A stretch of DNA of 63,761 bases, filler included. It is 4 parts of 4 records of this genome, joined end to end, with 100 filler letters (N's around TTAATTAATTAA, not from the genome) between each part and the next. Parts side by side here need not be neighbours in the genome. Positions count along the whole stretch, not along the records: positions 28,946 to 50,671 come from SRR20825006_1730; 3 more parts are not named here. One strand, given 5' to 3'. The notes beneath the pieces are model-generated. The model saw only the letters and a list, made by a program, of their open reading frames with translations. It had not been told where the DNA came from and did no database searches. Of the stretch, positions 1-51,217 are shown one piece after another. Made by a program: the position numbers and the translations under genes. Each line of letters opens with the position of its first letter. The first letter of the stretch is position 1.

Positions 1-34
1 TCGTTTGGAACTAGTTCCAAACGACATTTTTTTT
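1..34 (+). terminator. Intrinsic terminator of an upstream gene outside the window
   Basis: Perfect 24-nt palindrome TCGTTTGGAACTAGTTCCAAACGA followed by CA and T8. Confidence 0.7.
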
Positions 35-288
35 ACGTTTAGTGTATCTTTTTTCAGATAAAATAGAATTGTATTATCTACTAAATCTATAGACTTTTCT
101 TACTTGATTAACAATATTTAACACATTCTTAAAATATTAGATGGATATTATATTATTGATTTTTTTTCACCTAATTATTTAAATCACTAATAATAATTCA
201 TTAAAATTAACTATTCTTTAGTTTTTCAATATAGTTTTAACATAAATTTCTATAAGTTAGTACCGCTAATCAAAAACTATATTTAATA

Positions 289-3200: not shown

Positions 3201-3450
3201 TCATGATGCTACTTATATAAAATTAAGAACCATTCGTTTGAAATATGACTTTAATAAGGCGTTAATAGAAAAACTGAGTCTTTCGGGAGCTTCAATAAGC
3301 TTATATGCCAATAATGTTTGGTTAATTTATTCTGATGAACCATGGATTGACCCATCAGAATTAGAAAAAAGAAATGATATAAATTGGGCAGAAGGGGGGA
3401 CTTTACCAATGACTCGTACTGTTGGTTTAAACCTGAATTTAATTTTCTAA
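289..3450 (+). CDS. SusC/RagA family TonB-dependent outer membrane transporter
   Basis: Signal peptide, N-terminal extension (GLPLPGANVVVKGT), plug motifs (LAGRVSGIQV, VLKGASATAIYG..GRNGVIIIT), C-terminal Phe; followed by a SusD gene. Confidence 0.95.
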   Translation: MKSKLSVFLMLVLAFNVQFIFAQEKTVTGVVTDQDGLPLPGANVVVKGTAVGAQTNFDGEYSIQANVGDILVFSYVGQKPEERTVGTSNEINLALVQDAQALAEVVVTGQGIRREKKALGFSQQSVEGDQLVQARETDVNNALAGRVSGIQVVGNSSSTFGESKVRLRGNDDLLYVVDGVRINNSSDINTDNIAEMSVLKGASATAIYGPEGRNGVIIITSKSGTIGAAKVEVNYSVGLSSVSALPKYQNEYGGGYSQTFNTFSYDPAQDPASWASFDGQQYPDFWADESWGPRLDGQMVRHWDSWIPGTPEFGELRPWTQSPNDVRSFYDSALTNNTTVSFSKAGEDYNVMSTVSYVNQNGVIPNTSNQYTKVALNAFYNVTDKLKFVANINIEDRDRLNNPDQGYGNLGSNFNQWWQRQLDFNRLQDYMRNGQAVSWNIRGPRDARPLYWDSPYFHSYENERHDYKNSYFGKIGIVYEITDDLDFTFDVRRTFYSYLADDRATTISLLDPAFYSEQQSRRERQDFFGMLNYHKRLFNENLDLDIVVGGEKIEEDYRSLYSTTNGDLTIPDFYNLAGSQDPVTAENLTEREKRNGLFTKASLGYKGTIYIDGSYRLDWSSTARADDNRVETYGGSLSFLLHEILPKNDILTFAKLRAGYASAPFFPDPYLTSNVYDVDVLYQGNGRLSVSNNQENPILRGGTRDEFEIGSELQFFRNRVSLDLTYFNRIDNDLPINVPLDGATGYSNITVNSGKQTTNGFEVGITGDIIKSKDVTWTLGVNFATLEKVVNELYPGIDARDLSTYSTSIRLQERVGEEYGLFYGTGYAKDENGNILFTENDGNYYYSIQQNKFLGSLLPDYTGGIVSNFKYKNLSFNLGFDFQKGGKYYSRTERYLDHSGLSAKTAGLNDLGNPKRDPVSSGGGEHIVGVLQTGLDADGNPISDGTVVDAYVDPQVLYNSGNLGTIYENNLHDATYIKLRTIRLKYDFNKALIEKLSLSGASISLYANNVWLIYSDEPWIDPSELEKRNDINWAEGGTLPMTRTVGLNLNLIF

Positions 3451-3457
3451 AAAAACA

Positions 3458-4912
3458 ATGATGATGAATACCATATTAAGACATATAAAAATAGTGGCAT
3501 GTATAACTGTATTATGTAGTTCATGTAGCACCATAGATTATGACGATACCAATGAGAATCCAAATGGACCAACCAGTGCGGTTACTTCTCAACTTTTAAC
3601 TAATGCATTAACAAGCATTCCTGATATTGTAGTGGATGAAACCCCAATATTATATATGCAACATATTACAGAAGGGCAGTATCCTGGAGCTTCAAGATAT
3701 TCTGGGCTAACCTATAGCTACGACGGATGGTATACAGGAGCTTTACAAGATTTAAATGAAATTATTGCTATTAACAGTGACCCTGAAACCGCGGAGGATG
3801 TGGCTGTTTATGGAGCTAATGCAAATCAAATAGCAACAGCTAAAATAATTAGAGCTTATTTTTTACAGTATATGACAGATCGTTGGGGGGCACTACCTTG
3901 GTCTGAAGCTTTTATGGGAATAGATAATCCGCAACCTAAATTTGATACTCAAGAGAGTCTTTATGATTTTATGTTTGCTGAAATTGAAGATGTATTGGCT
4001 ACCATAGATCATAGCGCATCAGGGCCAAGTGGCGATATATTATTTGCTGGAGATATGGATCGTTGGGAAGCATTTGCTAATAATTTAAAAATGACCATGG
4101 CATTGAGAATTTCCGATGTAAATCCAACATTGGCTAAAACTAAGTTTGAAGAGACTGTGGCTTCTGGATTGTTAGTAATGGACAATGCCGATAATATTGA
4201 ATATCATTATGGAACAGATGATGCCAGTGATAGTCCATGGATGGATAACTTTAGAACAAGAGAGGATTATATCCTGTCGCGAACTATGGTTGAATCTTTG
4301 AGAGATAATATGGATCCAAGGTTGTTTGAGTTTGCAGTTCCTGCTAGAGATAGTATCTCAACAATAACTAATTTCCCTGGAGGGATAGATGCTGAATATG
4401 TAGGGGCTCCTAATGGGAATGTAAATGGAAACGTTCCTAGTTATTCTTTTATAGCGAGTGAGATTATTTACGAACCAGATTATCCATCGCCAATTTATAC
4501 CGCTGCACAGATAAAATTTGCTTTGGCGGAAGCTTCAATGAAAGGTTGGAATGTAAATGGAGATGCTGCTACTTTTTATGAAGAGGCCATAAGCGCTTCC
4601 ATGGAGTATTGGGGAGTAGAGGCTACAGATATACAAAGCTATATTACTGCACATCCTTATGCTGGTATAGCAACTATAGCTTATGAAAAATGGGTGGCAT
4701 TATATTTAAATGGACCAGAGGCTTGGGCAGAATGGAGAAGGTTAGATGCTCCTGCACTAACACCATCGTCTTATGCTAATGACCCTCGAATTCCAGTAAG
4801 ACATGCTTACGATGCTTCTATTTCTGATAATAATGCAGTCAATTATCAAGAAATGATTCAGTTTCAAGGACCAGATAATTTACACACTAAACTTTGGTGG
4901 GATGTAAATTAA
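3458..4912 (+). CDS. SusD/RagB family outer membrane lipoprotein
   Basis: Lipoprotein signal (VLCSSC), NENPN motif, TDRWGALPWSEA, EAWAEWRR and LWWD C-terminus; directly downstream of susC. Confidence 0.93.
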   Translation: MMMNTILRHIKIVACITVLCSSCSTIDYDDTNENPNGPTSAVTSQLLTNALTSIPDIVVDETPILYMQHITEGQYPGASRYSGLTYSYDGWYTGALQDLNEIIAINSDPETAEDVAVYGANANQIATAKIIRAYFLQYMTDRWGALPWSEAFMGIDNPQPKFDTQESLYDFMFAEIEDVLATIDHSASGPSGDILFAGDMDRWEAFANNLKMTMALRISDVNPTLAKTKFEETVASGLLVMDNADNIEYHYGTDDASDSPWMDNFRTREDYILSRTMVESLRDNMDPRLFEFAVPARDSISTITNFPGGIDAEYVGAPNGNVNGNVPSYSFIASEIIYEPDYPSPIYTAAQIKFALAEASMKGWNVNGDAATFYEEAISASMEYWGVEATDIQSYITAHPYAGIATIAYEKWVALYLNGPEAWAEWRRLDAPALTPSSYANDPRIPVRHAYDASISDNNAVNYQEMIQFQGPDNLHTKLWWDVN

Positions 4913-4946
4913 AGATTGTTCTCAATTTGTAAAAATTGAATTTAAG

Positions 4947-4981
4947 AGAGAGCCTTTAGTATTTATACTTTAGGCTCTTTT
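4947..4981 (+). terminator. Probable terminator of susCD
   Basis: AGAGCCT...AGGCTCT inverted repeat followed by a T-run. Confidence 0.6.
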
Positions 4982-5009
4982 GATTTGTATAGATGCTCAA
5001 GTTCGAAAT

Positions 5010-5043
5010 AAAAAAGCCTCAAATCTTAATGAAATGAGGCTTT
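5010..5043 (-). terminator. Probable terminator of purA
   Basis: AAAGCCTCA...TGAGGCTTT inverted repeat with an A-run on its left (U-tract on the minus strand). Confidence 0.6.
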
Positions 5044-5065
5044 ATAGCTTGTAATATTTTTAAAA

Positions 5066-6337
5066 CTATCTGTTAATAGTTTGAGTTCTGTCTGGTCCAA
5101 CAGAAACTATTTTTATAGGAACATTTAATTCTTTTTCAAGGAAATCTATATAATCATTTAATTCCTTCGGAAATTCTTCTGTTGAGCTTAATTTAGTAAG
5201 GTCTTTATCCCATCCATTCATTTCAGTATAAATAGGAGTTACATTTTCAGCTTCAATATTATAAGGTAAATGCTCAATAGTTTCTCCTTTATATGAATAA
5301 GCGGTACAGACTTTTAATTTTTTAAATCCGCTTAAAACGTCAGCCTTCATCATCATTAATTGGGTTACTCCATTAACTTGTACAGCATATTTTAAAGCAA
5401 CTAAATCCAGCCATCCACATCTTCTAGGTCTCCCTGTTACAGCTCCAAATTCATTTCCAATTCTAGCCATGTTTTCTCCATCTTCGTCAAATAACTCTGT
5501 TGGGAAAGGGCCACTTCCTACACGAGTGGTGTAAGCCTTGAAAATTCCAAAAACTTCACCAATTCTGTTTGGAGCAACTCCTAAACCTGTACAAGCTCCA
5601 GCAGCAGTTGTGTTAGAAGAGGTTACAAATGGGTATGTTCCAAAGTCAATATCTAATAAAGATCCTTGAGCTCCTTCAGCTAGAATAGTTTTATTTTCTT
5701 TTAAAGATTGATTTAAAAACTCTTCACTATCTATGAATTTTAATTTTTTCAATTCGGTAATAGCTTCAAAGAATTCTCTTTCAAGTTCTGCTAAATCATA
5801 TTGAATATCTACATTATAAAAGCTAATCATAGCCTCATGTTTATCGGCTAAAGCTCTATATCTATCTTTAAAGTCGCTTAACTCAATATCTCCAACTCTT
5901 AGACCGTTTCTTCCAGTTTTGTCCATATAAGTTGGGCCAATACCTTTTAAAGTAGAACCTATTTTGGCTTTTCCTTTGGAAGCTTCAGAAGCGGCATCCA
6001 ATAATCTGTGTGTTGGAAGAATAAGATGCGCTTTTCTAGATAATATAAGTTTCTTAACGTAATCTATTTTAAATTGATCTAACCCTTCTAGTTCTTTAAC
6101 AAAAACTACAGGATCTATAACAACCCCATTTCCAATTACATTAATAGAGTTTTCATGAAAAATACCTGATGGAATTGTTCTTAAAACGTGTTTTATGCCA
6201 TCAAATTCTAAAGTGTGACCAGCATTTGGGCCTCCTTGGAAACGAGCAATGATATCATAATTTTTGGTGAGTACATCAACGATTTTACCTTTTCCTTCGT
6301 CTCCCCATTGTAATCCTAGTAGTAAGTCTACTGCCAT
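5066..6337 (-). CDS. purA: Adenylosuccinate synthetase
   Basis: QWGDEGKGK, GGPNAGHT, EGAQG, GAVTGRPRRCGWLD motifs. Confidence 0.98.
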   Translation of the reverse strand: MAVDLLLGLQWGDEGKGKIVDVLTKNYDIIARFQGGPNAGHTLEFDGIKHVLRTIPSGIFHENSINVIGNGVVIDPVVFVKELEGLDQFKIDYVKKLILSRKAHLILPTHRLLDAASEASKGKAKIGSTLKGIGPTYMDKTGRNGLRVGDIELSDFKDRYRALADKHEAMISFYNVDIQYDLAELEREFFEAITELKKLKFIDSEEFLNQSLKENKTILAEGAQGSLLDIDFGTYPFVTSSNTTAAGACTGLGVAPNRIGEVFGIFKAYTTRVGSGPFPTELFDEDGENMARIGNEFGAVTGRPRRCGWLDLVALKYAVQVNGVTQLMMMKADVLSGFKKLKVCTAYSYKGETIEHLPYNIEAENVTPIYTEMNGWDKDLTKLSSTEEFPKELNDYIDFLEKELNVPIKIVSVGPDRTQTINR

Positions 6338-6355
6338 TTTCTGTAAATAAAATTA

Positions 6356-6799
6356 TTAGCTTTTTTCATTTTTTGTACCGTAAAAGTACAGTGAATGATT
6401 TTGAATTTTTATGTCGAAAACCTCTTCAATAGTTTTCTTGATATTTTGTATACGTGGATCGCAAAACTCCATTACTTCTCCAGTATCTGTTAAAATAACA
6501 TGGTCGTGTTGCTTGTCAAAATATGATTTTTCGTAATGTGCTTGATTTTGTCCAAACTGATGTTTTCTTACTAAACCAGATTCCAACAAAAGCTCTATAG
6601 TATTATAGAGGGTAGCACGACTTACACGATAGTTCTTATTTTTCATTTTGATATACAAAGATTCTATATCAAAATGTTCAGTACTATCATAAATTTCTTG
6701 TAGTATAGCATATCGTTCAGGTGTTTTCCTGTGTTTGTGTTCTTCCAAAAATTTGGTAAACACATTTTTAACGATTTCTTGATTTTTTTCGTTCGCCAT
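6356..6799 (-). CDS. fur: Fur family transcriptional regulator
   Basis: [19 protein letters not shown] helix-turn-helix, HDH metal site; ATG at 6799 preferred to the TTG at 6805. Confidence 0.88.
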
Positions 6800-6822
6800 A
6801 ATCAAATCTACGAATTAGGATA

Positions 6823-6830
6823 CAAATGTA
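6823..6830 (-). promoter_or_regulatory. Bacteroidota -7 promoter element for fur-purA
   Basis: TACATTTG on the minus strand matches the TAnnTTTG consensus. Confidence 0.55.
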
Positions 6831-6923
6831 ATGTTTAATGACGAAATATGCACCAGAAAATAAAAAGTACTCGCAAAACATTATAACAATATTAAGAGAG
6901 TACTTTGTTCTTAATGTGCTTAT

Positions 6924-9128
6924 TTAAATACGTCTAACTTTATCAATACCATTAATTTTTTTCAAATTTTCTAACAATTTTTTCAGAATGGTTTTATTTT
7001 TAACTTCTACTGTAATTTTACCTGAAAAAACACCACCTTCTGTTTCGAAGTTGATATTTTTCATGTTTACATGCATATTGTTAGAAATTACTTTGGTAAC
7101 ATTACTTACTAATCCTAAATTATCAATACCATCTAATTTTATGATGGCTGTAAATTCTTGCTGTGTAGAATCTATCCATTTTGCAGAAATAATCCGGTAC
7201 GCATAATTTGATTGTAAAGTAATAGCATTAGGACAGTTTTTTTTATGAACCTTAATGCCTTCGTTTACCGTAATAAAGCCAAACACATCGTCCCCAGGAA
7301 TAGGATTACAGCAATTGGAGAATTTATAATCTAATTTTTCTTCTTCTTTACCAAACACAAGCTGGTCGTAATTAGTTGTAATTTCCTCCCGATTAATTTC
7401 CTCTTGAGCGGCTGGTTTCCGCATTTTATTCTTGAAGAAATTAATAAAGGTATTGTTACGCGAAGAAGCAAAATCTTTCAACATCTGGTTGTCAATTGTG
7501 CTAATTCCTACACGGTAGAAAAGATCTAAACTTGTTTTTAATTTAAAATATACAACCAAATCGTTTACAACACTTTCATTAAGTGTTATTTTGAGTTGTT
7601 TTAGTTTACGGCGTAATATTTCTTTTCCTTCTTCGGCAATTTCTTTTTTCTCGTCTTTAAGAGAAGATTTTATTTTAGCTCTTGCTCTTGCTGAGGTAGC
7701 ATAATCTAGCCAGTTGGCGTTTGGTTTTGAGCTTTCCGAAGTTATAATTTCTACCTGATCTCCGCTTTTCAACTCTCTACTTAATGGAACTAATTTTCCA
7801 TTTACTTTTGCACCTCTAGTTTTTAAACCTATTTCTGTGTGGATACTGAAAGCAAAATCTAATGGCGTAGCTCCTTTTGGTAAGGACTTTAGTTCTCCTT
7901 TTGGGGTAAAAACAAAAATTTCTTGGGAATATAGATTAAGTTTAAATTCTTCAACAAAATCTACGGCATTTCCGTCGGCGTTTTCTAGTGCCTCTTGTAG
8001 TCTGTTTAACCAGATTTCTATTCCTTGTTCTTTTTGTTCTCCGTGTTTATATTTAAAGTGAGCAGCATAACCTTTCTCGGCAATTTCATGCATACGTTCA
8101 CTTCGTATTTGTACTTCTACCCAACGTCCTTTCGGACCAATAACTGTAATATGAAGTGCTTCATATCCTGTAGTTTTAGGAGAAGAAATCCAGTCTCTTA
8201 AACGGGTTGGATTTGGTCTAAAGTGGTCTGTTACAATGGAATATATTTTCCAAGCGAGGAATTTCTCATTGTCACGATCGCTCTTGTAGATTATTCTAAT
8301 GGCAAACTTATCATAAACTTCATCAAAGCTCACATTTTGAGCTTTCATTTTTCTACGGATAGAAAATATAGATTTAGGTCTTCCTTTGATAGAATAATTT
8401 AAACCCTCTACATCCAAACTTTCTTTTATAACATTGCTAAAAGACTCTATATAGACCTCTTGGTCTTCCTTAGTTTCTTCCATCTTACTTAGAATGTCGT
8501 TGTAAACATTCGGTTCGGTGTATTTTAAACCAAGGTCTTCTAGTTCTGTTTTAATATTGTAAAGGCCGATTCTATGGGCTAGGGGAGCGTATATGTACAG
8601 CGTTTCCGAAGCTATTTTTACCTGCTTATGTGCAGCCATGGAATCCATGGTTTGCATATTATGGAGTCGGTCGGCAATTTTTATAAGAATTACTCTAACG
8701 TCATCATTTAAAGTAAGAAGCATTTTTCGGAAATTTTCTGCTTGCAGTGAAATATCCTGCTCCGAAGTCATTTGAGATATTTTTGTAAGACCGTCTACAA
8801 TTCGGGCAACAGTTTCCCCAAATAAACGTTCCATATCTTCTAAAGTATAAGAAGTATCTTCAACAACATCATGCAACAAGGCTGCCGCAATGGCAGTAGC
8901 ATCCAGTCCAATTTGCTGCGCTACAATTTTAGCTACCGCAATTGGATGGAAAATATAGGCTTCCCCGCTTTTTCTGCGTTGGTCTTTATGCGCATCAACA
9001 GCTGTGTCAAAAGCCAAACGGATGAGTTTTTTATCCTCATCTGTTAGGGTTTGATAACTTATGCGCAATAACTCTTTGTATTGCCTAGCAATTTGCTTGT
9101 TTTCCTTTTCTACCTCTAATACCGTCAT
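6924..9128 (-). CDS. relA: Bifunctional (p)ppGpp synthetase/hydrolase (RelA/SpoT family)
   Basis: HD hydrolase (LLHDVVEDT), synthetase (GRPKS, EVQIR), TGS (FTPKG), CCNPIPGD and ACT domains. Confidence 0.95.
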   Translation of the reverse strand: MTVLEVEKENKQIARQYKELLRISYQTLTDEDKKLIRLAFDTAVDAHKDQRRKSGEAYIFHPIAVAKIVAQQIGLDATAIAAALLHDVVEDTSYTLEDMERLFGETVARIVDGLTKISQMTSEQDISLQAENFRKMLLTLNDDVRVILIKIADRLHNMQTMDSMAAHKQVKIASETLYIYAPLAHRIGLYNIKTELEDLGLKYTEPNVYNDILSKMEETKEDQEVYIESFSNVIKESLDVEGLNYSIKGRPKSIFSIRRKMKAQNVSFDEVYDKFAIRIIYKSDRDNEKFLAWKIYSIVTDHFRPNPTRLRDWISSPKTTGYEALHITVIGPKGRWVEVQIRSERMHEIAEKGYAAHFKYKHGEQKEQGIEIWLNRLQEALENADGNAVDFVEEFKLNLYSQEIFVFTPKGELKSLPKGATPLDFAFSIHTEIGLKTRGAKVNGKLVPLSRELKSGDQVEIITSESSKPNANWLDYATSARARAKIKSSLKDEKKEIAEEGKEILRRKLKQLKITLNESVVNDLVVYFKLKTSLDLFYRVGISTIDNQMLKDFASSRNNTFINFFKNKMRKPAAQEEINREEITTNYDQLVFGKEEEKLDYKFSNCCNPIPGDDVFGFITVNEGIKVHKKNCPNAITLQSNYAYRIISAKWIDSTQQEFTAIIKLDGIDNLGLVSNVTKVISNNMHVNMKNINFETEGGVFSGKITVEVKNKTILKKLLENLKKINGIDKVRRI

Positions 9129-9259
9129 AGAATAAAAATAACATAAAGTTTATTATTAACCAACAAAATCTATGCCTTATGATTAATTCTTTAAGAAATG
9201 TTTTTCCTTGTAAGAAGGCAATAAGCAAAGTGTAAGATTAGTATTACCAATTTTGGTTT

Positions 9260-10492
9260 CTACTTAACCAAATTTGTAAAGCGTTCCAATAATGTTGGGT
9301 GAGAATAATGTACAAAAACATAGGCTGGATGTGGTGTAAGATTACTTAAACTATTTTTTGATAGTTTTTTTAATGAAGTAACTAGTGGCTCCCCAGCATA
9401 GGTGTTTTTTGCAAAATCATCTGCTTGATATTCAAATTTCCTTGAAAAATAATTCATTATGAGTCCAGTGATTTCTGAAATCGGACTGTAAAGAATTCCA
9501 AAAGCGATTAATCCCGCATGAAAACTCGGTTGATTTACACCAATTGCAAGTGACAATTCGGGAACATTAACAAACAATGATAGAATGAATAGTGTAATCC
9601 CTGTTAAAATGATAGAAGCAACTATATTAAAAATAATGTGTTTCTTTTTATAATGACCAACTTCATGAGCTAACACGGCTACAATTTCTTCTTCTTCTAA
9701 ATCGTTTACAAGGGTGTCAAAAAGTGTTATTCTTTTTTGCTTTCCAAAACCAGAAAAATAAGCATTTGCTTTGGTAGAGCGCTTAGAGCCATCAATAACA
9801 AAAATATTATCAAGCTGAAAACCTACTTTTGCAGCGTAGTTTTCAATTTTGGTTTTTAAACTCCCATCTTCTAAAGGGGTTTGCTTATTAAAAAGTGGAA
9901 CAATTATTTTACTGTAAAACATATTCATAAAAATGGTAAATACAGCTACCATAATCCATGCGTAAATCCAAAAATTAGCACCTGCTATTTGATAAAACCA
10001 AATAATAAGAGCTAGAATTCCACCTCCTAAAACAGTTAGCATTAACCACCCTTTAAGTTTGTCTAGAAAGAAAGTTTTTTTTGAAGTTTTATTGAAACCA
10101 TACTTTTCTTCAATAACAAAAGTATGGTAATAAGAAAATGGTGTGGTAATAATATCACTTGCAAAAGTTATTATTCCGAAGAAAATTAAAGCGATAATAA
10201 CTTCATTATTGCTTATATTTCTAGCTATCTCATCAACATATTCAAATCCGTCAAAAAAGAAGAAACCAAGGGTTAGGCATAACGAAAATAAAGAACTGAT
10301 ATTAGAGAATTTATAATTCGTTTTTTTATAAGCCTGCGACTTTTTATATGCTTCTTTATCATAAACATCTGCTAAAGCATCTGGAACTGGATTGTCAAAA
10401 TTTTTAGCATTTAAGCTGTCTAAAATTTTATCAACTATAAAATCGATACTAAGTATGGCAATAATGATGTAAAATATTGTTTGTGGACTCAT
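9260..10492 (-). CDS. M48 family (Ste24-like) membrane metallopeptidase
   Basis: HEVGH zinc motif, DGSKRSTKANAYFSG, EYQAD, YSHP; multiple TM segments. Confidence 0.93.
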   Translation of the reverse strand: MSPQTIFYIIIAILSIDFIVDKILDSLNAKNFDNPVPDALADVYDKEAYKKSQAYKKTNYKFSNISSLFSLCLTLGFFFFDGFEYVDEIARNISNNEVIIALIFFGIITFASDIITTPFSYYHTFVIEEKYGFNKTSKKTFFLDKLKGWLMLTVLGGGILALIIWFYQIAGANFWIYAWIMVAVFTIFMNMFYSKIIVPLFNKQTPLEDGSLKTKIENYAAKVGFQLDNIFVIDGSKRSTKANAYFSGFGKQKRITLFDTLVNDLEEEEIVAVLAHEVGHYKKKHIIFNIVASIILTGITLFILSLFVNVPELSLAIGVNQPSFHAGLIAFGILYSPISEITGLIMNYFSRKFEYQADDFAKNTYAGEPLVTSLKKLSKNSLSNLTPHPAYVFVHYSHPTLLERFTNLVK

Positions 10493-10519
10493 TTTAAGAT
10501 AAATTAAATAATTTGGCTG

Positions 10520-11317
10520 TTAAAAGCCACGTTGTCTTTTGGCTTCAAATATAACAATAGCTGCAGCTACAGAAACATTCATGGAATCTATTTCTCCTTG
10601 CATGGGAATAATTATATTTTGAGTAGAGGCTTCAAGCCATTCTCCGCTCAATCCAGTAGCTTCAGTTCCTACAACAATGGCTGCTGCTTGCTTATAATTT
10701 ACTTTGCTATAATTTATGGAAGCCGTTAAGGCAGCGCAATTAATAGAAATATTTTTATTTTTTAGAAAAGAAATAATTTCTGAAGTGCTCCCAGTAGCAA
10801 TATTATTTGTAAAAATACAACCAACGCTAGAACGTAAAATATTGGGATTATATATGTCGCTTTTAGGATTTGCAATAACTACAGCATCCAAATTGGCAGC
10901 ATCTGCTGTACGTAGCAAAGCACCAATATTCCCAGGTTTTTCAGGTGCTTCGGCAACCAAAATCAACGGATTTTCATTTTTAAATTGAAGGTTAGAGAGG
11001 TTATGCGTTTTTGCTTTTGCAATTGCCAGAATACCTTCGGTGGTTTGTCTGTATGCTAATTTCTGATAAACTTCTTTTGAAATTTTAATTAATTCTACAT
11101 TCGGATGTTTTTGAAGTATTAATTTTACCGCTTCTTCCGAAATAATGGATTCATTAAAAAGAACTGTTTCTAGATGGTATGCACCCTTTAAGGCTAGCTC
11201 GGTTTCTCGGATACCTTCAACAATAAATAAACCCGATTTTTTACGCTCTTTGGATTTTTCCTTTAAGTGTAAAATTTGCTTTACCAAACTATTTTGTGTG
11301 CTTGTAATCTCTTTCAA
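10520..11317 (-). CDS. TrmH/SpoU family RNA 2'-O-methyltransferase
   Basis: EKPGNIGALLRTADA, VGTEATGL and IPMQGEIDSMNVS SPOUT motifs. Confidence 0.93.
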   Translation of the reverse strand: MKEITSTQNSLVKQILHLKEKSKERKKSGLFIVEGIRETELALKGAYHLETVLFNESIISEEAVKLILQKHPNVELIKISKEVYQKLAYRQTTEGILAIAKAKTHNLSNLQFKNENPLILVAEAPEKPGNIGALLRTADAANLDAVVIANPKSDIYNPNILRSSVGCIFTNNIATGSTSEIISFLKNKNISINCAALTASINYSKVNYKQAAAIVVGTEATGLSGEWLEASTQNIIIPMQGEIDSMNVSVAAAIVIFEAKRQRGF

Positions 11318-11541
11318 CAGTATTTTTTTTCAAAAATACTTTAAATCTGTGGTTTTTCAAGATGTGAAATCAAGGAAAACGATTTTTTGTAATACTACAA
11401 GGGTTTATTAAAGTTTATTTTCTGTTATTAAAATGATAATTTGGCAACTTGAATAGGTAGTTTTTTACATATTGATAATTTTTTATGCTTTTATTTTTAA
11501 TATCATTTTTATACAGTTAATTAATGTTAAATAAACATATG

Positions 11542-11565
11542 TTGATAGTAATACTATTAATTTTG
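11542..11565 (+). promoter_or_regulatory. Candidate TetR operator overlapping a -7 promoter element
   Basis: Palindrome ATAGTA-A-TACTAT (11545-11557, extendable to 11542-11560) abutting TAATTTTG (11558-11565). Confidence 0.55.
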
Positions 11566-11596
11566 AATGCTGTAATATCAATAAAAAATAAAGGCT

Positions 11597-12268
11597 ATGA
11601 AGTTGCCTGGTAACCTGAGGTTTACGATAAATGAGAAGCTATTTTTAAAAGACCCTGAGTCGTCTGACTTAGGGAGAAAGATTCTGAAGCACTCTATTTT
11701 AATGATAGATGAAATAGGATTTGATGCTTTCACTTTTAAGAAATTAGGAGAGTGTATAGGTTCTAATGAGAGTTCTATTTATCGGTATTTTGAAAACAAA
11801 CACAAGCTGTTGTTGTACTTATCATCTTGGTATTGGTCTTGGGTAGAATATAGAATGTTATTTGCTATTCAGAATATCAACGACTCTAAAGAAAAGCTTC
11901 ATAGAGTAGTCTATGAGGTTACTTGCGAGGTAAAAGACGATATAAGAACGGAATATATTGATGAAGCTGTTCTAAATAGAATTATTATTTCTGAGTATTC
12001 CAAAGCATTTTTAACTAAAGAGGTGGATACAGAAAATAGAGACGGTTTTTTCTTGGTCTATAAAAAAGTGATTTCACTGCTAGCAAACATTATTGCTGAA
12101 GTAAATCCCGAATATCCATACAGTAAGTCGTTGGCTTCAAGTGTTGTTGTTGGAGCTTTAAATCAGCATTTTATAAAACGACACTTTAAAAGTATTACCG
12201 ATTTTTCAGAACCAGATAAAAATGTAGCATCATTTTACATCCAAACACTTGATAAAATATTGTTATGA
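11597..12268 (+). CDS. TetR/AcrR family transcriptional regulator
   Basis: N-terminal HTH (GFDAFTFKKLGECIGSNESSIYRYFENK). Confidence 0.9.
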   Translation: MKLPGNLRFTINEKLFLKDPESSDLGRKILKHSILMIDEIGFDAFTFKKLGECIGSNESSIYRYFENKHKLLLYLSSWYWSWVEYRMLFAIQNINDSKEKLHRVVYEVTCEVKDDIRTEYIDEAVLNRIIISEYSKAFLTKEVDTENRDGFFLVYKKVISLLANIIAEVNPEYPYSKSLASSVVVGALNQHFIKRHFKSITDFSEPDKNVASFYIQTLDKILL

Positions 12269-13911
12269 CGCCATTTCAAAGATTTAGAGGCTTATTAAAA
12301 GTCGATAAAAAGGATATATATCAAATTATTCTTTATTCCATTCTAGCGGGAGTTATTAGTTTATCCCTTCCATTAGGGATTCAGTCTATTGTAAACTTTT
12401 TACAAGCCGGAAAAGTTAGTACTTCATGGGTAGTACTAGTTATTATTGTAGTATTGGGAGTAGCTATGGTAGGGGTTTTTAAGATTATGCAATATCGAAT
12501 TACGGAGAATCTTCAGCAAAAAATATTTGTACGTTCTTCTTTTGAGTTTGCTTTTCGGTTCCCAAAAATGAAATTCAGTAAGCTATATCCATACTTGCCC
12601 GAAGAGCTAGCAAACCGATTTTTTGATACCATTAATGTACAGAAAGGAGTGTCAAAGCTTTTATTAGATATGAGTGGTGCTGCCTTACAAGTTTTCTTCG
12701 GAATTATCTTATTATCGCTCTATCATTCCTTCTTTATTTTCTTCGGATTGATGCTTATTACGCTATTATATTTTATTTTCAAATTAAACTTTAACCCTGG
12801 GGTTGATACCAGTTTACAAGAATCGAATTTAAAATATAAAGTAGCACATTGGTTACAAGAAGTAGCACGTAATCATATGAGTTTTAAAAACAAGCGTGTT
12901 TTTAATTTTTCGTTGGATAAAAATGATGAGTTGGTAGGGGGATATTTAAAGTATAGAGAAAGTCATTTTGCCATTTTAAGAAGACAATTTATACAGCTAA
13001 CAGGATTTAAAGTATTAATGACAGCTGGTCTTTTAATTATTGGGGGGATATTGGTCCTTAATCAACAAATGAATATTGGACAGTTTGTAGCCGCAGAAAT
13101 TATCATCTTAAATATTACCAACGCAGTAGAAAAGCTTTTTTCTGGAACGGAATTGTTTTACGATGTGTTGGCATCCTTAGAAAAAATAGGGAAAGTGATG
13201 GACATAGAATTGGAGTCTGAAGAAAAAGGGCAGTATAAATTAGAGGAAACTCCAATTTCAATTGAAACTAAAGAATTGAGCTACAAGTTTCCAGATTCTG
13301 AACACTATGTGCTTAAAAATATAACCCTAAAAATAGATCCAAACGACCGTATTTTAATAGAAGGACCAAATGGCTCTGGAAAAACTACTTTGGTAAGAGT
13401 TTTAAGTAGAATTATAGAACCCACCGAAGGAATGGTGTATATAAATGGAACTAATTATAAAAAATACTCTTTAGAAGATTATAGGTTTAATATGAGTTCT
13501 ATTAGTGTAAATGATAATGTTTTTGAAGGGACAATTCTGGAAAATATTACGTGTAAAAATCCAGAAATATCACTTTCTAGAATATTAAAAGTTTTAGAAG
13601 AATTGAAACTCTCAGATTACATTAGGTCGCTTCCTAATGGATTGGATACACAAGTACATTCTGGAGGGAAACAATTATCGTCTTCTATAGTCGAGAAAAT
13701 ATTATTAGCACGTTGTGTACTTTCAAATCCGAGGATAATATTTTTAGAAGAACCACTAGAAAATGTAGATAAAGCTTCTTCCATAGACATTATAGATTAT
13801 ATGACCGCACCTGATAAAAACTGGACTTTAATAGTAATTTCCAAAAATCCATATTGGAAATCAAAATCTAATAAGAGTTTTTATATGGTAAATGGAACCT
13901 TAAAAAGTTAG
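12265..13911 (+). CDS. Type I secretion/PCAT-like ABC transporter (TMD+NBD, no C39 domain, degenerate NBD)
   Basis: Six TM segments, MNIGQFVA, Walker A GPNGSGKTT; signature LSSSI, Walker B IFLEEP. Confidence 0.88.
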   Translation: MTPFQRFRGLLKVDKKDIYQIILYSILAGVISLSLPLGIQSIVNFLQAGKVSTSWVVLVIIVVLGVAMVGVFKIMQYRITENLQQKIFVRSSFEFAFRFPKMKFSKLYPYLPEELANRFFDTINVQKGVSKLLLDMSGAALQVFFGIILLSLYHSFFIFFGLMLITLLYFIFKLNFNPGVDTSLQESNLKYKVAHWLQEVARNHMSFKNKRVFNFSLDKNDELVGGYLKYRESHFAILRRQFIQLTGFKVLMTAGLLIIGGILVLNQQMNIGQFVAAEIIILNITNAVEKLFSGTELFYDVLASLEKIGKVMDIELESEEKGQYKLEETPISIETKELSYKFPDSEHYVLKNITLKIDPNDRILIEGPNGSGKTTLVRVLSRIIEPTEGMVYINGTNYKKYSLEDYRFNMSSISVNDNVFEGTILENITCKNPEISLSRILKVLEELKLSDYIRSLPNGLDTQVHSGGKQLSSSIVEKILLARCVLSNPRIIFLEEPLENVDKASSIDIIDYMTAPDKNWTLIVISKNPYWKSKSNKSFYMVNGTLKS

Positions 13912-13914
13912 ACT

Positions 13915-15282
13915 ATGCTGAATATTTCAAATAATAGAATTCACAATTATGTAGATTCGAGTAGGTTTAAATCTATGACAATCTTTGCAGATAATAAGCA
14001 TTATAAAATTATTCGGAAAGTAGTATGGGGGGTGTTTATTGCCATGGTATTGGTGTTGTTTCTTCCGTGGACGCAAAATATTAAGGGAAGCGGATTTGTT
14101 ACTACGTTAAAACCAGGACAAAGGCCACAAGCTGTACATGCCATTATTGGTGGTAGAATAGAAGCTTGGTATGTACAAGAAGGAGATTTTGTTAAAAAAG
14201 GAGATACTATTTTACATATCTCTGAAACTAAATCGGAATATTTTGATCCAAATTTAGTTGAAAATACTGGAATTCAAGTAAAGGCAAAAGAGAGTGCTGT
14301 AGTGTCTTACACGGCAAAAGTAGAAGCTTTGGCACAACAGATTAATGCTATAAAACGAGAAAGACAACTTAAACTGAAGCAGGCTGGAAATAAATTGAAA
14401 CAAAGTAGACTGAAAGTTAAAAGTGATAGTATTGATTTGGAAGCTGTAAAAACTCAATTAAGTATTGCTGAAACACAGTATGAACGAGCTTTTAAACTAA
14501 ATGATGAAGGTTTGAAACCGATGACTTATGTGGAGGAGAAGAAAGTAAAGCTACAACAAATGCAAGCCAAAATAGTAACACAAGAAAATAAGTTACTAAC
14601 CAGTGAAAACGAATTAATTAATAGTGAAATGGAACTTACACGTTTGGAGGCTTCTTATGCTGAGAAATTAGCTAAGGCTGCGAGCGATCGACAGACGGCT
14701 CTAAGTACACAGTTTGATACCGAATCTCAGGTAAGTAAGTTGCGTTCTCAATATACGAGTTATCAAATTCGTAACGGGATGTATTATATTACTGCACCAC
14801 AGGCGGGTTACGTAAACCGCGCCTTACAATCGGGACTCGGAGAAACTATTAAAGAAGGAGCGTCTGTGGTAAGTATTATGCCTTCAGATTTTGAGATTGC
14901 CGTAGAGTCTTATGTAGAACCAATGGATTATCCGTTAATTAATACAGGCGAAAAAGTACGTATTTGGTTTGATGGTTGGCCAACAATTGTTTTTAGTGGT
15001 TGGCCTGGAGTGTCTTATGGAACTTTTGGTGGAGTTATTGTTGCTAAAGAAAACTTTATTAGTGCTAATGGAAAATATCGTGTTTTAATTGCACCCGATC
15101 CAGAAGAAAAAACATGGCCTAATTTATTGAGTATTGGTGCAGGTGCACAAACATTGGCGCTTTTAGATACCGTGCCAATTTGGTTTGAAATTTGGCGAAC
15201 ACTAAATGGATTCCCTCCTAATTTTTATAAGACGCAAAACAAAGTGGTAGATAAAGGTAATGCAGAAAAAAACGAAAAATAA
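13915..15282 (+). CDS. HlyD family periplasmic adaptor (membrane fusion protein)
   Basis: N-terminal TM, lipoyl half-motif VQEGDFVKKGD, long coiled coil, ITAPQAG. Confidence 0.9.
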   Translation: MLNISNNRIHNYVDSSRFKSMTIFADNKHYKIIRKVVWGVFIAMVLVLFLPWTQNIKGSGFVTTLKPGQRPQAVHAIIGGRIEAWYVQEGDFVKKGDTILHISETKSEYFDPNLVENTGIQVKAKESAVVSYTAKVEALAQQINAIKRERQLKLKQAGNKLKQSRLKVKSDSIDLEAVKTQLSIAETQYERAFKLNDEGLKPMTYVEEKKVKLQQMQAKIVTQENKLLTSENELINSEMELTRLEASYAEKLAKAASDRQTALSTQFDTESQVSKLRSQYTSYQIRNGMYYITAPQAGYVNRALQSGLGETIKEGASVVSIMPSDFEIAVESYVEPMDYPLINTGEKVRIWFDGWPTIVFSGWPGVSYGTFGGVIVAKENFISANGKYRVLIAPDPEEKTWPNLLSIGAGAQTLALLDTVPIWFEIWRTLNGFPPNFYKTQNKVVDKGNAEKNEK

Positions 15283-15288
15283 GCTTTT

Positions 15289-16704
15289 ATGAAGATCAGT
15301 AAGTTACATATCTATGTATTCTCCTTGTTCTTAATAGGGATGTTTTTTGGTGTGCAAAAAGGAAATGCTCAAGAAGAAACTTTTAATGAAACATTTACTT
15401 ATGAAGAGTTCTTGGGCGTTGTAAAAAAATACCATCCTTTGGTAAGACAAGCCGATTTAATTTTAACCACTTCAGAAGCAAAACTTTTAAAAGCCCGTGG
15501 TTATTTTGATCCAAAAGTAACGGCAGATTTTAATAAAAAACGTTATAAAGACACAGAGTATTATTCTTTATTTAATGGGAGTTTTAAAATCCCTACTTGG
15601 TATGGAGTAGAACTAAAGGCAGCTTTTGATAAAAATCAAGGAGATTATATCAATCCAGAAAATTATGTTCCAGAAGATGGTTTAGCAAGCTTTGGAATTT
15701 CGGTTCCTGTAGGACAAGGATTATGGATTAATAAAAGAATGGCTGAAGTTAAAAAAGGAAAACTCTATCAAGAATTAGGAGATTATGAACGTACATTGGC
15801 TGTAGTTGATGCCATAACGGAAGCATCTGCAGCTTATTTTGACTGGAAACAGCAATATGATAAAGCAAAACTGTATGAAACGTTTTATGAAAATGCTAAA
15901 GAGCGTCAGGAATGGATTGTTAAATCCATTGTATTAGGCGAACTTTCTCCAATTGATAGTGTAGAATCTGGAATTAATTTAAAAACTCGTAGGTTAGAGT
16001 GGGAGCAGGCAAATTTAAAACTCACAAAAAGTAGACTTTCTTTATCTAATTATATTTGGACAGAAGATGAAATTCCTCTTGAAGTTTCTGAACAAATGCA
16101 ACCAGAGGAAACTTTAAAAGATAATATCCTTTCTGTTTTGAATATCAATCCTGTTTCTGAAGAAGTAGATCTTGAAAATCATCCAAAATTAAAAGCCTTG
16201 AGTACAAAAATAGCCATGAAAGATGTGGATAGGAGACTAATGGCAAATAAACTTTTACCAAAGCTAAATGTAAATTATAATTACATAGCAACACCAGATT
16301 ATATAGACAACTATAATTGGGATGATTATAAAATTGGAGCTTCGCTTTCTTTTCCTATTCTATTGAGAAAAGAGAGAGCTGATGTGAAAATAGCAAAGGC
16401 AGAATTGAGTAATGCCCAATATGGATTGAAGTTTCAAATGCAAGAACTTCAGAATAAAGTAAAGGCTAAATTTGCGGAGCTAAATTCCTACCAAGAACAA
16501 ATACTAATGAATGCCGATTTAGTATCAGATTATCAGCAAATGCATAATGCTGAAGTCCGATTGTTTGAAATGGGAGAAAGTTCTATTTTTTATATCAATA
16601 CTCGAGAAAATAAATTGGTAAAAGCAAGGGTATCACAAATAGAATTAGAAAACGACTATTTTTTAATTGCTGCTGAATTGTATCGAACTTTAGCAATACT
16701 ATAG
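15289..16704 (+). CDS. TolC family outer membrane efflux protein
   Basis: Signal peptide, two OEP-like repeats (YHP..., NHPKL..., LLPKLNV), FEMGESS motif. Confidence 0.9.
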   Translation: MKISKLHIYVFSLFLIGMFFGVQKGNAQEETFNETFTYEEFLGVVKKYHPLVRQADLILTTSEAKLLKARGYFDPKVTADFNKKRYKDTEYYSLFNGSFKIPTWYGVELKAAFDKNQGDYINPENYVPEDGLASFGISVPVGQGLWINKRMAEVKKGKLYQELGDYERTLAVVDAITEASAAYFDWKQQYDKAKLYETFYENAKERQEWIVKSIVLGELSPIDSVESGINLKTRRLEWEQANLKLTKSRLSLSNYIWTEDEIPLEVSEQMQPEETLKDNILSVLNINPVSEEVDLENHPKLKALSTKIAMKDVDRRLMANKLLPKLNVNYNYIATPDYIDNYNWDDYKIGASLSFPILLRKERADVKIAKAELSNAQYGLKFQMQELQNKVKAKFAELNSYQEQILMNADLVSDYQQMHNAEVRLFEMGESSIFYINTRENKLVKARVSQIELENDYFLIAAELYRTLAIL

Positions 16705-16752
16705 ATTTTTGTTCTTATGCTTTTTTCGGATTTTTAGTTTTATTAAAGGCTT

Positions 16753-16813
16753 ATTGAAAGATTGAAAGATTCAAAGATTGAAAGATTGAAAAAGTCGGGA
16801 GTCGGGAGTCGGA
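16753..16813. repeat. Compound short tandem repeat: 5 x ATTGAAAG-like 8-mer followed by 3 x AGTCGGG-like 7-mer
   Basis: ATTGAAAG ATTGAAAG ATTCAAAG ATTGAAAG ATTGAAAA AGTCGGG AGTCGGG AGTCGGA. Confidence 0.9.
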
Positions 16814-16821
16814 ATTAAAAG

Positions 16822-16921
16822 NNNNNNNNNNNNNNNNNNNNNNNNNNNNNNNNNNNNNNNNNNNNTTAATTAATTAANNNNNNNNNNNNNNNNNNNNNNN
16901 NNNNNNNNNNNNNNNNNNNNN
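16822..16921. other. Artificial contig linker
   Basis: N44-TTAATTAATTAA-N44 (stops in all six frames); composition changes abruptly across it. Confidence 0.99.
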
Positions 16922-16922
16922 C

Positions 16923-43736: not shown

Positions 43737-44189
43737 TTAAAATTCAAAGTTGTCGTTTTTCTCCAAAACGTCCCAAGTGTGATCTGCTAAAAGTCTAACG
43801 GTAGCAACAAATTCAAAGGATTTTTTCGAGCGCCCCCATTGGTCTGGTGCAATTAGCGAAAGCAAGAACACGCGATCCTCTTTCTGATACAAATGATAAA
43901 TGTGATTAATCAGTGGTTCAAAGCGCATTTCGGCACCATAAATGATCTCGGAAATAGACTTTCGATCGTTCAGTTTTTTCACCTGATCGGCCAACAACTG
44001 CATCTGATCATAAATCTGTTTGAGTTGCATATCCGTTTGATGTTCCATCGCTGAGATTGCTCGACCTTTAATCTTTCCTTGATCTTCAGGTTTTACAATG
44101 GCAGATCCAGCATGATGAGGGTATTCCAACGAGTGCGGATTCTCTGAAATATGATCTGGGTCGATGGGATTGATGAATTCTTCGGACAT
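43737..44189 (-). CDS. DUF2452 family protein
   Basis: FEP...YHLY...LSLIAP..W and ADHTW motifs. Confidence 0.8.
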   Translation of the reverse strand: MSEEFINPIDPDHISENPHSLEYPHHAGSAIVKPEDQGKIKGRAISAMEHQTDMQLKQIYDQMQLLADQVKKLNDRKSISEIIYGAEMRFEPLINHIYHLYQKEDRVFLLSLIAPDQWGRSKKSFEFVATVRLLADHTWDVLEKNDNFEF

Positions 44190-45798: not shown

Positions 45799-45817
45799 TC
45801 ACTGTTATTTAGGTCGG

Positions 45818-45825
45818 CAAAGATA
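45818..45825 (-). promoter_or_regulatory. -7 promoter element of efp
   Basis: TATCTTTG on the minus strand (TAnnTTTG). Confidence 0.6.
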
Positions 45826-45933
45826 GTAATTCAGAACGATTTTTACATTATTCTTGATATAAAACACCTACCTTTAACCATCTTTAGGACTGAAAGATCA
45901 ACAAAAAGAGGTTGCATTTTAACGTAAATATCT

Positions 45934-46224
45934 ATGAAAGAATATTGGCAGGGACTTACAACAGGGCAAAAAACGAAATACATTATTAGTGGGATCGGAG
46001 GAATTCTGATTATCATTTTTGCGATTTTGAATTGGGAAACCACTGAGGTTCATTTTATTTTTTCGAAAGTGAAAATTTCAAAAACACTCCTGATTATTCT
46101 AAGTATTGCGGGTGGATTTGGATTGGCAACCTTGTTTGACTATAGAAAATTCAAGAAAAAGGACAAAGAAATCAGATCTCTGAAAAGTCAATTGGGACCT
46201 CGTAGAGAAGAGATCACTGAATAA
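45934..46224 (+). CDS. LapA/DUF1049-like small membrane protein
   Basis: Two TMs (IIFAILNW...V.FIF), basic C-terminal coiled coil. Confidence 0.75.
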   Translation: MKEYWQGLTTGQKTKYIISGIGGILIIIFAILNWETTEVHFIFSKVKISKTLLIILSIAGGFGLATLFDYRKFKKKDKEIRSLKSQLGPRREEITE

Positions 46225-46326
46225 AATCAACTTTTTTAGTTCAATACGGCGTTCATTTTTAGGTGAATAACTAGATATGTTACGTTTTTGTGAAAGAAAA
46301 GCGAGGAAATGAAAGACTTTTTTTCG

Positions 46327-46334
46327 TATCTTCG
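46327..46334 (+). promoter_or_regulatory. -7 promoter element upstream of the ncRNA candidate
   Basis: TATCTTCG, one mismatch to TAnnTTTG, about 6 nt before the first stem. Confidence 0.55.
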
Positions 46335-46340
46335 AAGAAC

Positions 46341-46564
46341 TGATGACGCTCCTTAGAGAGTCGTGCATCAACTCGAAAGAGGACCCATGTGGATATACTT
46401 GAAGCTTAAAAAATTGCCTTAAGGAGAGACTCAGGGATAGGATGACAGGCCTTACTCGCTTTGCGAAATTGTGAAAACAATCATTGGAAGTCAGATCATT
46501 TCAGCAATCCTAAACGTGTTAACTGAAGCTTCGGTTAACAGACTACATGGGTTTTTTGTTTTTT
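46341..46564 (+). ncRNA. Unassigned multi-stem structured ncRNA candidate (~220 nt)
   Basis: Eight compatible helices, two GAAA tetraloops, G-U pairs favouring the + strand, 10-bp closing stem followed by a U-tract, upstream promoter; no long ORF. Confidence 0.65.
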
Positions 46565-46778
46565 CACGGAGTTGCACACTTTTCAGCTAGCCACTTTTTC
46601 GTAGATTGTATTGATTTTGAACCAAAGCCTATCTGTGAAAACGATTTCATTCATTTTAGTTCTCATGTTTAGCCAATTTCTGAAAAATGTTTTTGGTAAA
46701 AACAATCATTGGCATCCGCATAAAAACCAAAAAAAATCGTCTATTTTTAGAGGAAATTTTGCCTAAACTGAACTTGTA

Positions 46779-47309
46779 GTGAACAACACTCCCATCATAA
46801 ACCAAAATATATTTCCTTGGTACAAGAAGCTTCTCGGAGTTTCTATTGCGTTAATCATTATTGGAGCACTGTGTCGTATCCAGCATTGGCCTTTAGGATT
46901 CGAAATTATATGCGGAGGGTTTCTGTTATTGCAAGCTGGTTTTTTACTCCGATTCTTTCGACATAAGGAAAAGGGTGTCCAAGAATACATTGAAATCATA
47001 ACGGCAACATTATTCGTTTCATATTCGATAATGAAACTATTTAGATTGCCTTATATGGTAGTAATTCAAATGGCTTTTTTTGCTAGTGGAACGATTTATT
47101 TAATCAACTACGTGTGGACGAAATGGAAAAATCGAGCTGAAGAAAAGTTTACTTTTTCTCGACTTATATTCATTTTCGCAGCATTCACAATAATTCTTGG
47201 AGCCCTGTTTAAAATTCAACATTGGCCCGGGGCAACTATATTATTGGCTGTTGGATTAGGTTTCGGTCTATTTTACATGCTGCTTCAGCTTCTTTCGAGG
47301 AATGAGTGA
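46779..47309 (+). CDS. Membrane protein with two GldL N-terminal-like TM hairpins
   Basis: IIIGALCRIQHWP and IILGALFKIQHWPGA repeats. Confidence 0.75.
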   Translation: MNNTPIINQNIFPWYKKLLGVSIALIIIGALCRIQHWPLGFEIICGGFLLLQAGFLLRFFRHKEKGVQEYIEIITATLFVSYSIMKLFRLPYMVVIQMAFFASGTIYLINYVWTKWKNRAEEKFTFSRLIFIFAAFTIILGALFKIQHWPGATILLAVGLGFGLFYMLLQLLSRNE

Positions 47310-49008: not shown

Positions 49009-50670
<1,662 letters not shown>

Positions 50671-50671
50671 A

Positions 50672-50771
50672 NNNNNNNNNNNNNNNNNNNNNNNNNNNNN
50701 NNNNNNNNNNNNNNNTTAATTAATTAANNNNNNNNNNNNNNNNNNNNNNNNNNNNNNNNNNNNNNNNNNNN
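50672..50771. other. Artificial contig linker
   Basis: N44-TTAATTAATTAA-N44. Confidence 0.99.
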
Positions 50772-50797
50772 CTAACTTAACATTTTATATATTACAA

Positions 50798-51217
50798 CTA
50801 TTTATCATCTTTATTTTCAACACGTTCCCAAATTGAGTCTGCATTTAATTTAAAACTTCCCACAAAATCAAAATTACATTGGTGTGGCGCAATGATAGAT
50901 AAAAAAGTTTCTGAGTTTTTACGTCTGTATAAGTGGTACGTTTCGCCAACTACAGGTTCAAAAGAAAACTTAGATTGGTAAATTAATTGATTGTACTCAT
51001 ATTCCTTGAGCATAGCTTCGTAAGCACTCTGCAACTCAGAGAATTTTGTCTTAATCTTATGGTTAACTTTATTTATGCTCCTGTTTTTCCAAGCTGTGGT
51101 ATCGAGTGAAGTTATTTGCGGAGCACCAAGATTTGTTGCATAGGTTTTTAAGCTGGCATCATATTTTTGATCTGCTTCATTAAATACAACGTTATCTGGT
51201 TTCTTTTTTTTAGACAT
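50798..51217 (-). CDS. DUF2452 family protein
   Basis: FSFEPVVGETYHLY...FLSIIAP. Confidence 0.85.
   Translation of the reverse strand: MSKKKKPDNVVFNEADQKYDASLKTYATNLGAPQITSLDTTAWKNRSINKVNHKIKTKFSELQSAYEAMLKEYEYNQLIYQSKFSFEPVVGETYHLYRRKNSETFLSIIAPHQCNFDFVGSFKLNADSIWERVENKDDK

Follow-up and report, generated by a model that had tools for sequence, protein, structure and literature searches.

A Probable, Diverged Member of the Bacteroidota 6S RNA Lineage in a Crocinitomicaceae-like Contig

A stand-alone, conserved small-RNA gene, about 220 nt long and having a promoter and terminator of its own, lies at positions 46340 to 46558 (+ strand) of the window, the 63,761-nucleotide stretch of DNA analyzed here. 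With a probability of about 0.75, we read it as a diverged 6S RNA gene of a Crocinitomicaceae bacterium, belonging to a Bacteroidota 6S lineage of which the Rfam families RF01693 and RF01685 are partial models. A preliminary description of this DNA had proposed an undescribed RNA class. The RNA is instead homologous to RF01693 and RF01685, both already read as Bacteroidota 6S RNAs, so that a known lineage gains a new, diverged member; the "atypical 6S-like RNA" that was listed there among other options fits that lineage.

Homologs and covariance model

Public genome contigs anchored on efp, a neighboring gene of the RNA in the window, supplied 80 loci, mostly titled as Crocinitomicaceae or Flavobacteriales metagenome-assembled genomes (efp protein identity, 69 to 90%). 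Searches with nhmmer, using the window element and then a profile, found the element in 16 of the 80, in every case upstream of efp and on the opposite strand to it. The window sequence and these 16 were aligned (alignment A1, 17 sequences), and a covariance model, R1, was built from the alignment (232 positions, 45 pairs). Run on 81 sources, R1 returned the same 17 strong matches and no further strong ones, and it matched all five whole genomes carrying efp-anchored loci.

Larger samples were then drawn at two ranks. In the family sample (151 genomes from the family of genome G064, Crocinitomicaceae by their titles), R1 matched 123 genomes, with a single full-length match in 121 and two matches in G114 and G166; the 28 family genomes in which R1 found no match are of unreported completeness. 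In the order sample, 38 of 151 genomes were matched. Matches at both ranks bear out the mention, in the preliminary description, of similar elements in other Flavobacteriales. The two full-length copies in G166 lie 2 kb apart (C2:161038-161265 and 163161-163379; 135 and 69.5 bits), and G065 carries two full-length copies on separate contigs (C77 and C84); such doubled copies may be paralogs, as 6S-1 and 6S-2 are, or may reflect bin redundancy. DNA searches and LapA-like protein searches among relatives of another genome, G001, gave nothing useful, and they were blind to the RNA-bearing contig because G001 is kin only to window positions 1 to 16740.

Predicted fold and covariation

The + strand folds with a minimum free energy (MFE) of −62.7 kcal/mol (z = −2.85; 2 of 200 shuffles fold equally well), and the − strand folds more weakly (z = −1.96). 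Of the 40 pairs that RNAalifold predicted on A1, 17 had compensatory changes. Pairs were counted in a second alignment, A2 (63 rows, 58 distinct), in which 93.5% of cells were paired, against 73.6% after shuffling and 32 to 49% with slid partners; these nested-pair counts are flattered because A2 was fitted to the covariance model. Covariation across relatives, which the preliminary description had named as a check, was strong, with double changes in 45 of 51 pairs and none of 500 shuffles reaching any of the measures. Together with the promoter box and the U-tract, it upholds the claim of a stand-alone, multi-helix RNA read from the + strand. Features and their coordinates are given in Table 1.

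Table 1. Features of the RNA gene and its neighbors, in window coordinates
Feature	Position	Strand	Remarks
LapA-like gene	45934-46224	+	Upstream neighbor
Promoter −7 box, Bacteroidota type	46328-46335	+	TATCTTCG; fits TAnnTT[TC][GA]
P1, 5' hairpin with internal loop, outside closing stem	46341-46370	+	MFE and covariation
P2, small hairpin	46372-46381	+	CUC-GAAA-GAG; double changes in 3/3 pairs, 91% paired
Closing stem, 5' strand	46383-46392	+	Pairs with 46543-46552; 10 bp including one G-U
Inner (J) helix, 5' strand	46399-46407	+	UUGAAGCUU; pairs with 46526-46534; proposed product-RNA template side
Central bubble, 5' strand	46408-46421	+	14-18 nt, median 15 (58 distinct sequences)
Apical stem, 5' strands of P4, P5, P6	46422-46453	+	88-100% paired; double changes in 16/17 pairs
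Two apical hairpins	46456-46466, 46468-46481	+	UCGC-UUU-GCGA and AUUGU-GAAA-ACAAU; window segment folds both
Apical stem, 3' strands of P6, P5, P4	46484-46511	+	Covariation counts, mapped coordinates
Central bubble, 3' strand, including 5' half of P8	46512-46525	+	Median 14 nt (58 distinct sequences)
P8, 3' hairpin	46518-46539	+	Loop AAGCUU, the J-strand partner; covariation
Closing stem, 3' strand	46543-46552	+	Pairs with 46383-46392
U-tract (T-run)	46552-46564	+	With closing stem, putative intrinsic terminator
GldL_N-like gene	46779-47309	+	Downstream neighbor

The fold can be read as a 6S-like rod that runs from the closing stem, past a small internal loop and the J helix, into a bubble of about 15 by 14 nt, and on to the apical stem (P4 to P6) and one or two terminal hairpins. 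The nine modeled pairs of the closing stem were 99.8% paired, with double changes in six. The core of the J helix, six pairs that are absent from the covariance model, was 96.8 to 98.1% paired, with double changes in four of the six, so that this pairing is supported independently of the model; relatives swap whole J word pairs (ACGUCU/AGACGU and GGUUCUU/AAGAAUU). RNAalifold chooses 9 bp for the J helix. The alignment is compatible with this longer form but does not go beyond that, since the three outer pairs (86.6% paired) have hardly any double changes. In P6 of the window, the two innermost pairs are U-U. The apical segment is variable, its MFE fold having two hairpins in 33 of the 58 distinct sequences and one hairpin in 25.

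Two elements depart from the plain rod. Outside the closing stem, the P1 hairpin was present in the MFE folds of 16 of the 17 A1 sequences and showed changes on both sides in all nine modeled pairs (87.5 to 87.9% of cells paired); P1 and P2 were both seen in the MFE folds of about half of 20 order-level R1 matches. The P1 internal loop (46345-46366) has a conserved GUAC on its 5' side and GCAGUGAC on its 3' side in many family members (e.g., L019, L012, and L030), and the window carries a variant. At the 3' end, P8 had double changes in all seven pairs and 89.1% of cells paired, in an alignment fitted to a structure containing P8. Nucleotides 46532-46534 serve both its top three pairs and, on the 3' side, the 9-bp form of the J helix. 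The rod and the P8 conformer are nearly isoenergetic (−57.4 versus −58.6 kcal/mol for the window copy; across 58 sequences, the difference has a median of −1.7), and the rod is the more stable in 38 of the 58. From these models, P8 and the J pairing may also form together as a static pseudoknot.

Six of the eight helices drawn in the preliminary description are kept in relatives, and two are replaced. P1, P2, the long-range stem, and the hairpin at 46518-46539 are retained with compensatory changes, and the two small apical hairpins fold in the window, within the variable segment. Neither the proposed CCTT..GAG/CTC.AGGG helix nor TAGGAT/ATCCTA found support, relatives pairing 46422-46424 with 46509-46511 and 46428-46438 with 46498-46505; in place of TAGGAT, most relatives read (A/G)CAAUG, which does not pair with AUCCUA. 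The AAGCTT words at 46402 and 46526, suggested there as sites of kissing or dimer contacts, are present and their contact is real, but the two words pair with each other.

Relation to Rfam families

At gathering scores, Rfam gave no match anywhere in the window (RF00013 included), and at E ≤ 10 over 46200-46800 it returned noise only, with no match to RF01693. When the window copy was scanned alone, the best match was to RF01685 along the full length of the model (17.6 bits; E = 4.7; 46404-46531, + strand), which is not significant. ARAGORN found no tRNA or tmRNA at 45800-47000. The preliminary description would have counted such silence in Rfam as support for novelty; there was indeed no match at the cut-offs, yet this was a false positive for novelty, and the test misleads because both Rfam models miss the clade of the window at their gathering cut-offs (60 bits for RF01693 and 85 bits for RF01685).

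Relatives of the window RNA link it to both families. When 20 order-level R1 loci (L147 to L166) were scanned with Rfam, RF01693 overlapped the R1 match at E < 0.1 in 15 and above its cut-off in 2 (66.5 and 61.7 bits). In the order sample, RF01693 was found at E ≤ 1e-3 in 50 of 151 genomes, 2 of them above the cut-off; 30 of the 50 also had R1 matches at the same coordinates, 8 of which were matched in the family search too. The positive control, Bacteroides thetaiotaomicron, passed the RF01693 cut-off. RF01685 was above its cut-off in all 25 genomes of the family of G001, and R1 matched 19 of 21 RF01685 loci (E = 1.5e-11 to 5e-3), each time with the Rfam match inside its own and on the same strand. 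The RF01685 count in the order sample, 1 of 151, is taken to reflect a sensitivity limit, because 23 candidates per genome were scored there versus 70 in the family of G001, and blanks in large samples need care. In five Crocinitomicaceae genomes, RF01685 gave nothing above its cut-off and no match at the R1 site; RF00013 likewise gave nothing above its cut-off in five family genomes, and its controls matched in five genomes, four of them above the cut-off.

These cross-matches between R1 and both Rfam families place the window RNA in one lineage with RF01693 and RF01685; since the window copy itself is below both cut-offs, its membership rests on transitive, model-to-model links. The survey by Wehner et al. 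(2014) of the spread of 6S RNA may already link the two families. Neither carries a clan label in the scan outputs, yet R1 matches both (loci L147 to L187). Both Rfam structure lines lack the closing stem and the inner helix, although the RF01693 consensus shows the complementary words.

The RF01693 family, defined for Bacteroidales and labeled Bacteroidales-1 ("6S-Bacteroidales RNA suggested"), has a structure line that annotates only the apical stem. Its consensus flanks AGCCGCA/UGCGGCU, followed by a U-run, resemble the closing stem described here, and GAAACUC/GAGUUUC resembles the J helix. Its apical stem has internal loops and terminal hairpins around a GGCGGGCC/GGAUUACA core, and the corresponding helices (P5, P6, and the hairpins), which the Rfam alignment spans, are kept with covariation in the present alignment. 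The apical core AAUGGCGGGCC...GGAUUACA of RF01693 is common to most Crocinitomicaceae copies, whereas the window has the variant GAUGACAGGCC...GGAAGUCAGA. RF01685 has the same order of elements (J strand, 5' bubble, apical stem, 3' bubble, and J' strand); its model, of 108 positions, stops inside the closing stem and covers roughly the inner half of the RNA. The canonical 6S RNAs (RF00013; Escherichia coli SsrS and Bacillus subtilis 6S-1) share the closing stem, inner helix, large central bubble, and apical stem, are of like size (about 180 to 220 nt), and have one gene per genome. The window RNA differs from them in its branched apex and in its 5' extension outside the closing stem, where the extra hairpins P1 and P2 set it apart from the Rfam models as well.

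Rfam annotation nearly always overlooks this RNA across the order, the RF01693 cut-off being passed in 2 of 151 genomes when 58 of 151 have a match to RF01693 or R1. Because Rfam-based annotation misses it, the genomes and metatranscriptomes of the abundant aquatic Crocinitomicaceae keep an unnamed and probably highly expressed RNA. With RF01685 and RF01693 as parts of a single lineage, a wider joint model, or a clan uniting the two, would allow 6S RNA to be annotated throughout Flavobacteriales.

Proposed function

By analogy with known 6S RNAs, the window RNA would bind RNA polymerase and serve in product-RNA synthesis. The rod with its open bubble would mimic an open promoter and occupy the housekeeping RNA polymerase holoenzyme. 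Upon nutrient upshift, the polymerase would transcribe a short product RNA from the J strand and the 5' side of the bubble. This synthesis would free the 3' J strand, allowing P8 to form or lock, and the RNA would then come off the polymerase. A study of E. coli-type 6S RNA (PMC8876501) describes such a release: as product RNA is made, one strand of the helix next to the bubble is freed and folds with the 3' bubble strand into a hairpin that drives release. That hairpin competes with the helix, as P8 may with J here, and the arrangement of J and P8 fits that scheme by analogy. The covarying inner helix and 3' hairpin offer a release switch open to testing, in a phylum that departs from the E. 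coli and B. subtilis models in its promoters and sigma factor.

Expression of Bacteroidota 6S RNAs has been described elsewhere. The 6S RNA and product RNAs of B. thetaiotaomicron were detected by differential RNA-seq (PMC7366714), a preprint (10.1101/2024.04.05.588293) calls RF01693 the 6S homolog and describes its stationary-phase accumulation in Segatella copri, and Flavobacterium psychrophilum expresses an Rfam-annotated 6S RNA (PMC9723704). By the evidence in PMC7366714 and 10.1101/2024.04.05.588293, RF01693 owes its 6S assignment to transcriptomics in two Bacteroidales. Further points that count against the 6S reading are the position of P1 and P2 outside the closing stem, the two U-U pairs in P6 of the window, and the 28 family genomes in which R1 had no match. 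A literature search on Bacteroidales-1, 6S-Flavo, and Flavobacteri/Bacteroidetes 6S found no paper on a Crocinitomicaceae 6S RNA. Four metatranscriptome runs from four studies each held one contig (159 to 206 nt) falling on 46357-46553 with 90 to 99% likeness. These are a weak hint of expression, because such contigs show presence in a library and not transcription, ends, level, or growth phase. Across the four RNA runs, nothing covered the sequence on either side (46100-46340 and 46560-46800), which carries no evidential weight. A fifth metatranscriptome contig (depth, 323) matched only 46491-46532 and was unlike the window beyond.

It is unlikely, though less so than any other alternative, that the gene encodes a trans-acting structured RNA with another function (a protein scaffold, sponge, or ribozyme), either because the RF01693/RF01685 lineage is no true 6S RNA or because this clade switched function. 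In that case the RNA would work through its strand-to-loop pseudoknot and its P1/P2 domain, and the multi-branched fold, the covarying contact between strand and loop, and the conserved GUAC...GCAGUGAC loop of P1 all suit this reading, as does the want of polymerase-binding data for any lineage member in the available text of PMC7366714 and 10.1101/2024.04.05.588293. Against it, the layout of rod, bubble, and apical stem with a 3' hairpin that may compete suits 6S RNA well, the gene is single copy per genome with no second 6S candidate in five genomes, and product RNAs are reported for the B. thetaiotaomicron homolog (PMC7366714).

Somewhat more doubtful is a distinct Bacteroidota subclass of 6S RNA, in which P8 would be pre-formed, its loop docked as a pseudoknot on the template (J) strand, and the P1/P2 5' domain would be conserved outside the closing stem. 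Unlike in canonical 6S RNA, the J strand of the window RNA can pair with a hairpin loop after that hairpin has formed, and P8 plus the J pseudoknot would partly occupy the template strand, which is no feature of canonical 6S RNA. Were this so, a tertiary contact, and not just a simple helix, would have to yield before product RNA could be made, and a second partner would bind to the P1/P2 domain; taken to its extreme, this reading would make the whole lineage something other than a polymerase decoy.

Locus and neighboring genes

The preliminary description had noted a gene-free gap holding a −7 promoter element and a 3' U-tract, and all three were seen, the flanking open reading frames ending at 46224 and starting at 46779. 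Transcription probably starts near 46340. A TAnnTT[TC][GA] box lies at most 30 nt upstream in 50 of the 58 distinct homologs, beginning 8 to 10 nt ahead of model position 1 in 46 of those 50, and at least five T's fall in the 8 nt past the closing stem in all 58. These bounds agree with the RF01693 family description, which we take to be that of a gene standing alone between a Bacteroidota-type promoter and an intrinsic terminator. A terminator scan reported no consensus terminator at the U-tract, because it permits only loops of 3 to 8 nt, and the consensus of the sigma-70 promoter scan is irrelevant to Bacteroidota.

The same boundaries make it very improbable that the element acts in cis, as a leader or riboswitch of the GldL_N-like gene or as the 3' untranslated region of the LapA-like gene. 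It does sit between two + strand genes, and among 48 loci derived from whole genomes a LapA-like gene lies upstream in 8. Neighbors vary among these loci, however, with efp nearby in seven and a GldL_N-like gene downstream in none, so that the downstream gene of the window is not conserved. About 215 nt separate the U-tract from the next start codon, and a promoter box directly upstream and a U-tract directly after the closing stem recur among the homologs as counted above. A cis-acting element would also be left without an expression platform, since the closing stem encloses the whole core domain, with P1 and P2 lying 5' of it. A mobile-element RNA serving as guide or accessory (omega-RNA or bridge-RNA type), to which the size and dense structure seem to bear some likeness, or a chance fold is scarcely credible, given that the gene is single copy in nearly every genome, that no transposase or nuclease family was found among the nearby genes scanned against Pfam (the adjacent efp was identified by relatives), and that covariation is strong. 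The gene is best read as that of a stand-alone 6S RNA.

The protein encoded at 46779-47309 (+ strand) is a 176-amino-acid membrane protein with two similar, QHWP-containing stretches, both of which match Pfam GldL_N. It is presumably far shorter than the GldL of gliding motility.

Other observations in the window

Artificial linkers (N-run, TTAATTAATTAA, and N-run) join contigs at 16822-16922 and 50672-50772. Contig 1 (positions 1 to 16821) is 99% identical to G001, whose family has 6S-Flavo in 25 of 25 genomes, and the RNA-bearing contig shares only scattered genes with G001, at 64 to 71% identity. The assembly appears to mix two organisms, since contig 1 matches G001 and the RNA-bearing contig seems Crocinitomicaceae-like. 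The end of contig 1 (16750-16817) is rich in repeats, with GATTGAAA-type units followed by GTCGGGA units, and has similar sequences at about two dozen places in G001 (74 to 96% identity).

An open reading frame of 518 amino acids (49009-50565, − strand) lies just before the end of its contig, and its frame may run on to the linker, at 50671; over 49009-50671 it presumably resembles a catalase-peroxidase without the N-terminal part. Two small open reading frames on the − strand, each of about 140 to 150 amino acids, lie at 43737-44189 and 50798-51217; the former matches Pfam DUF2452, and the latter is similar to it by eye.
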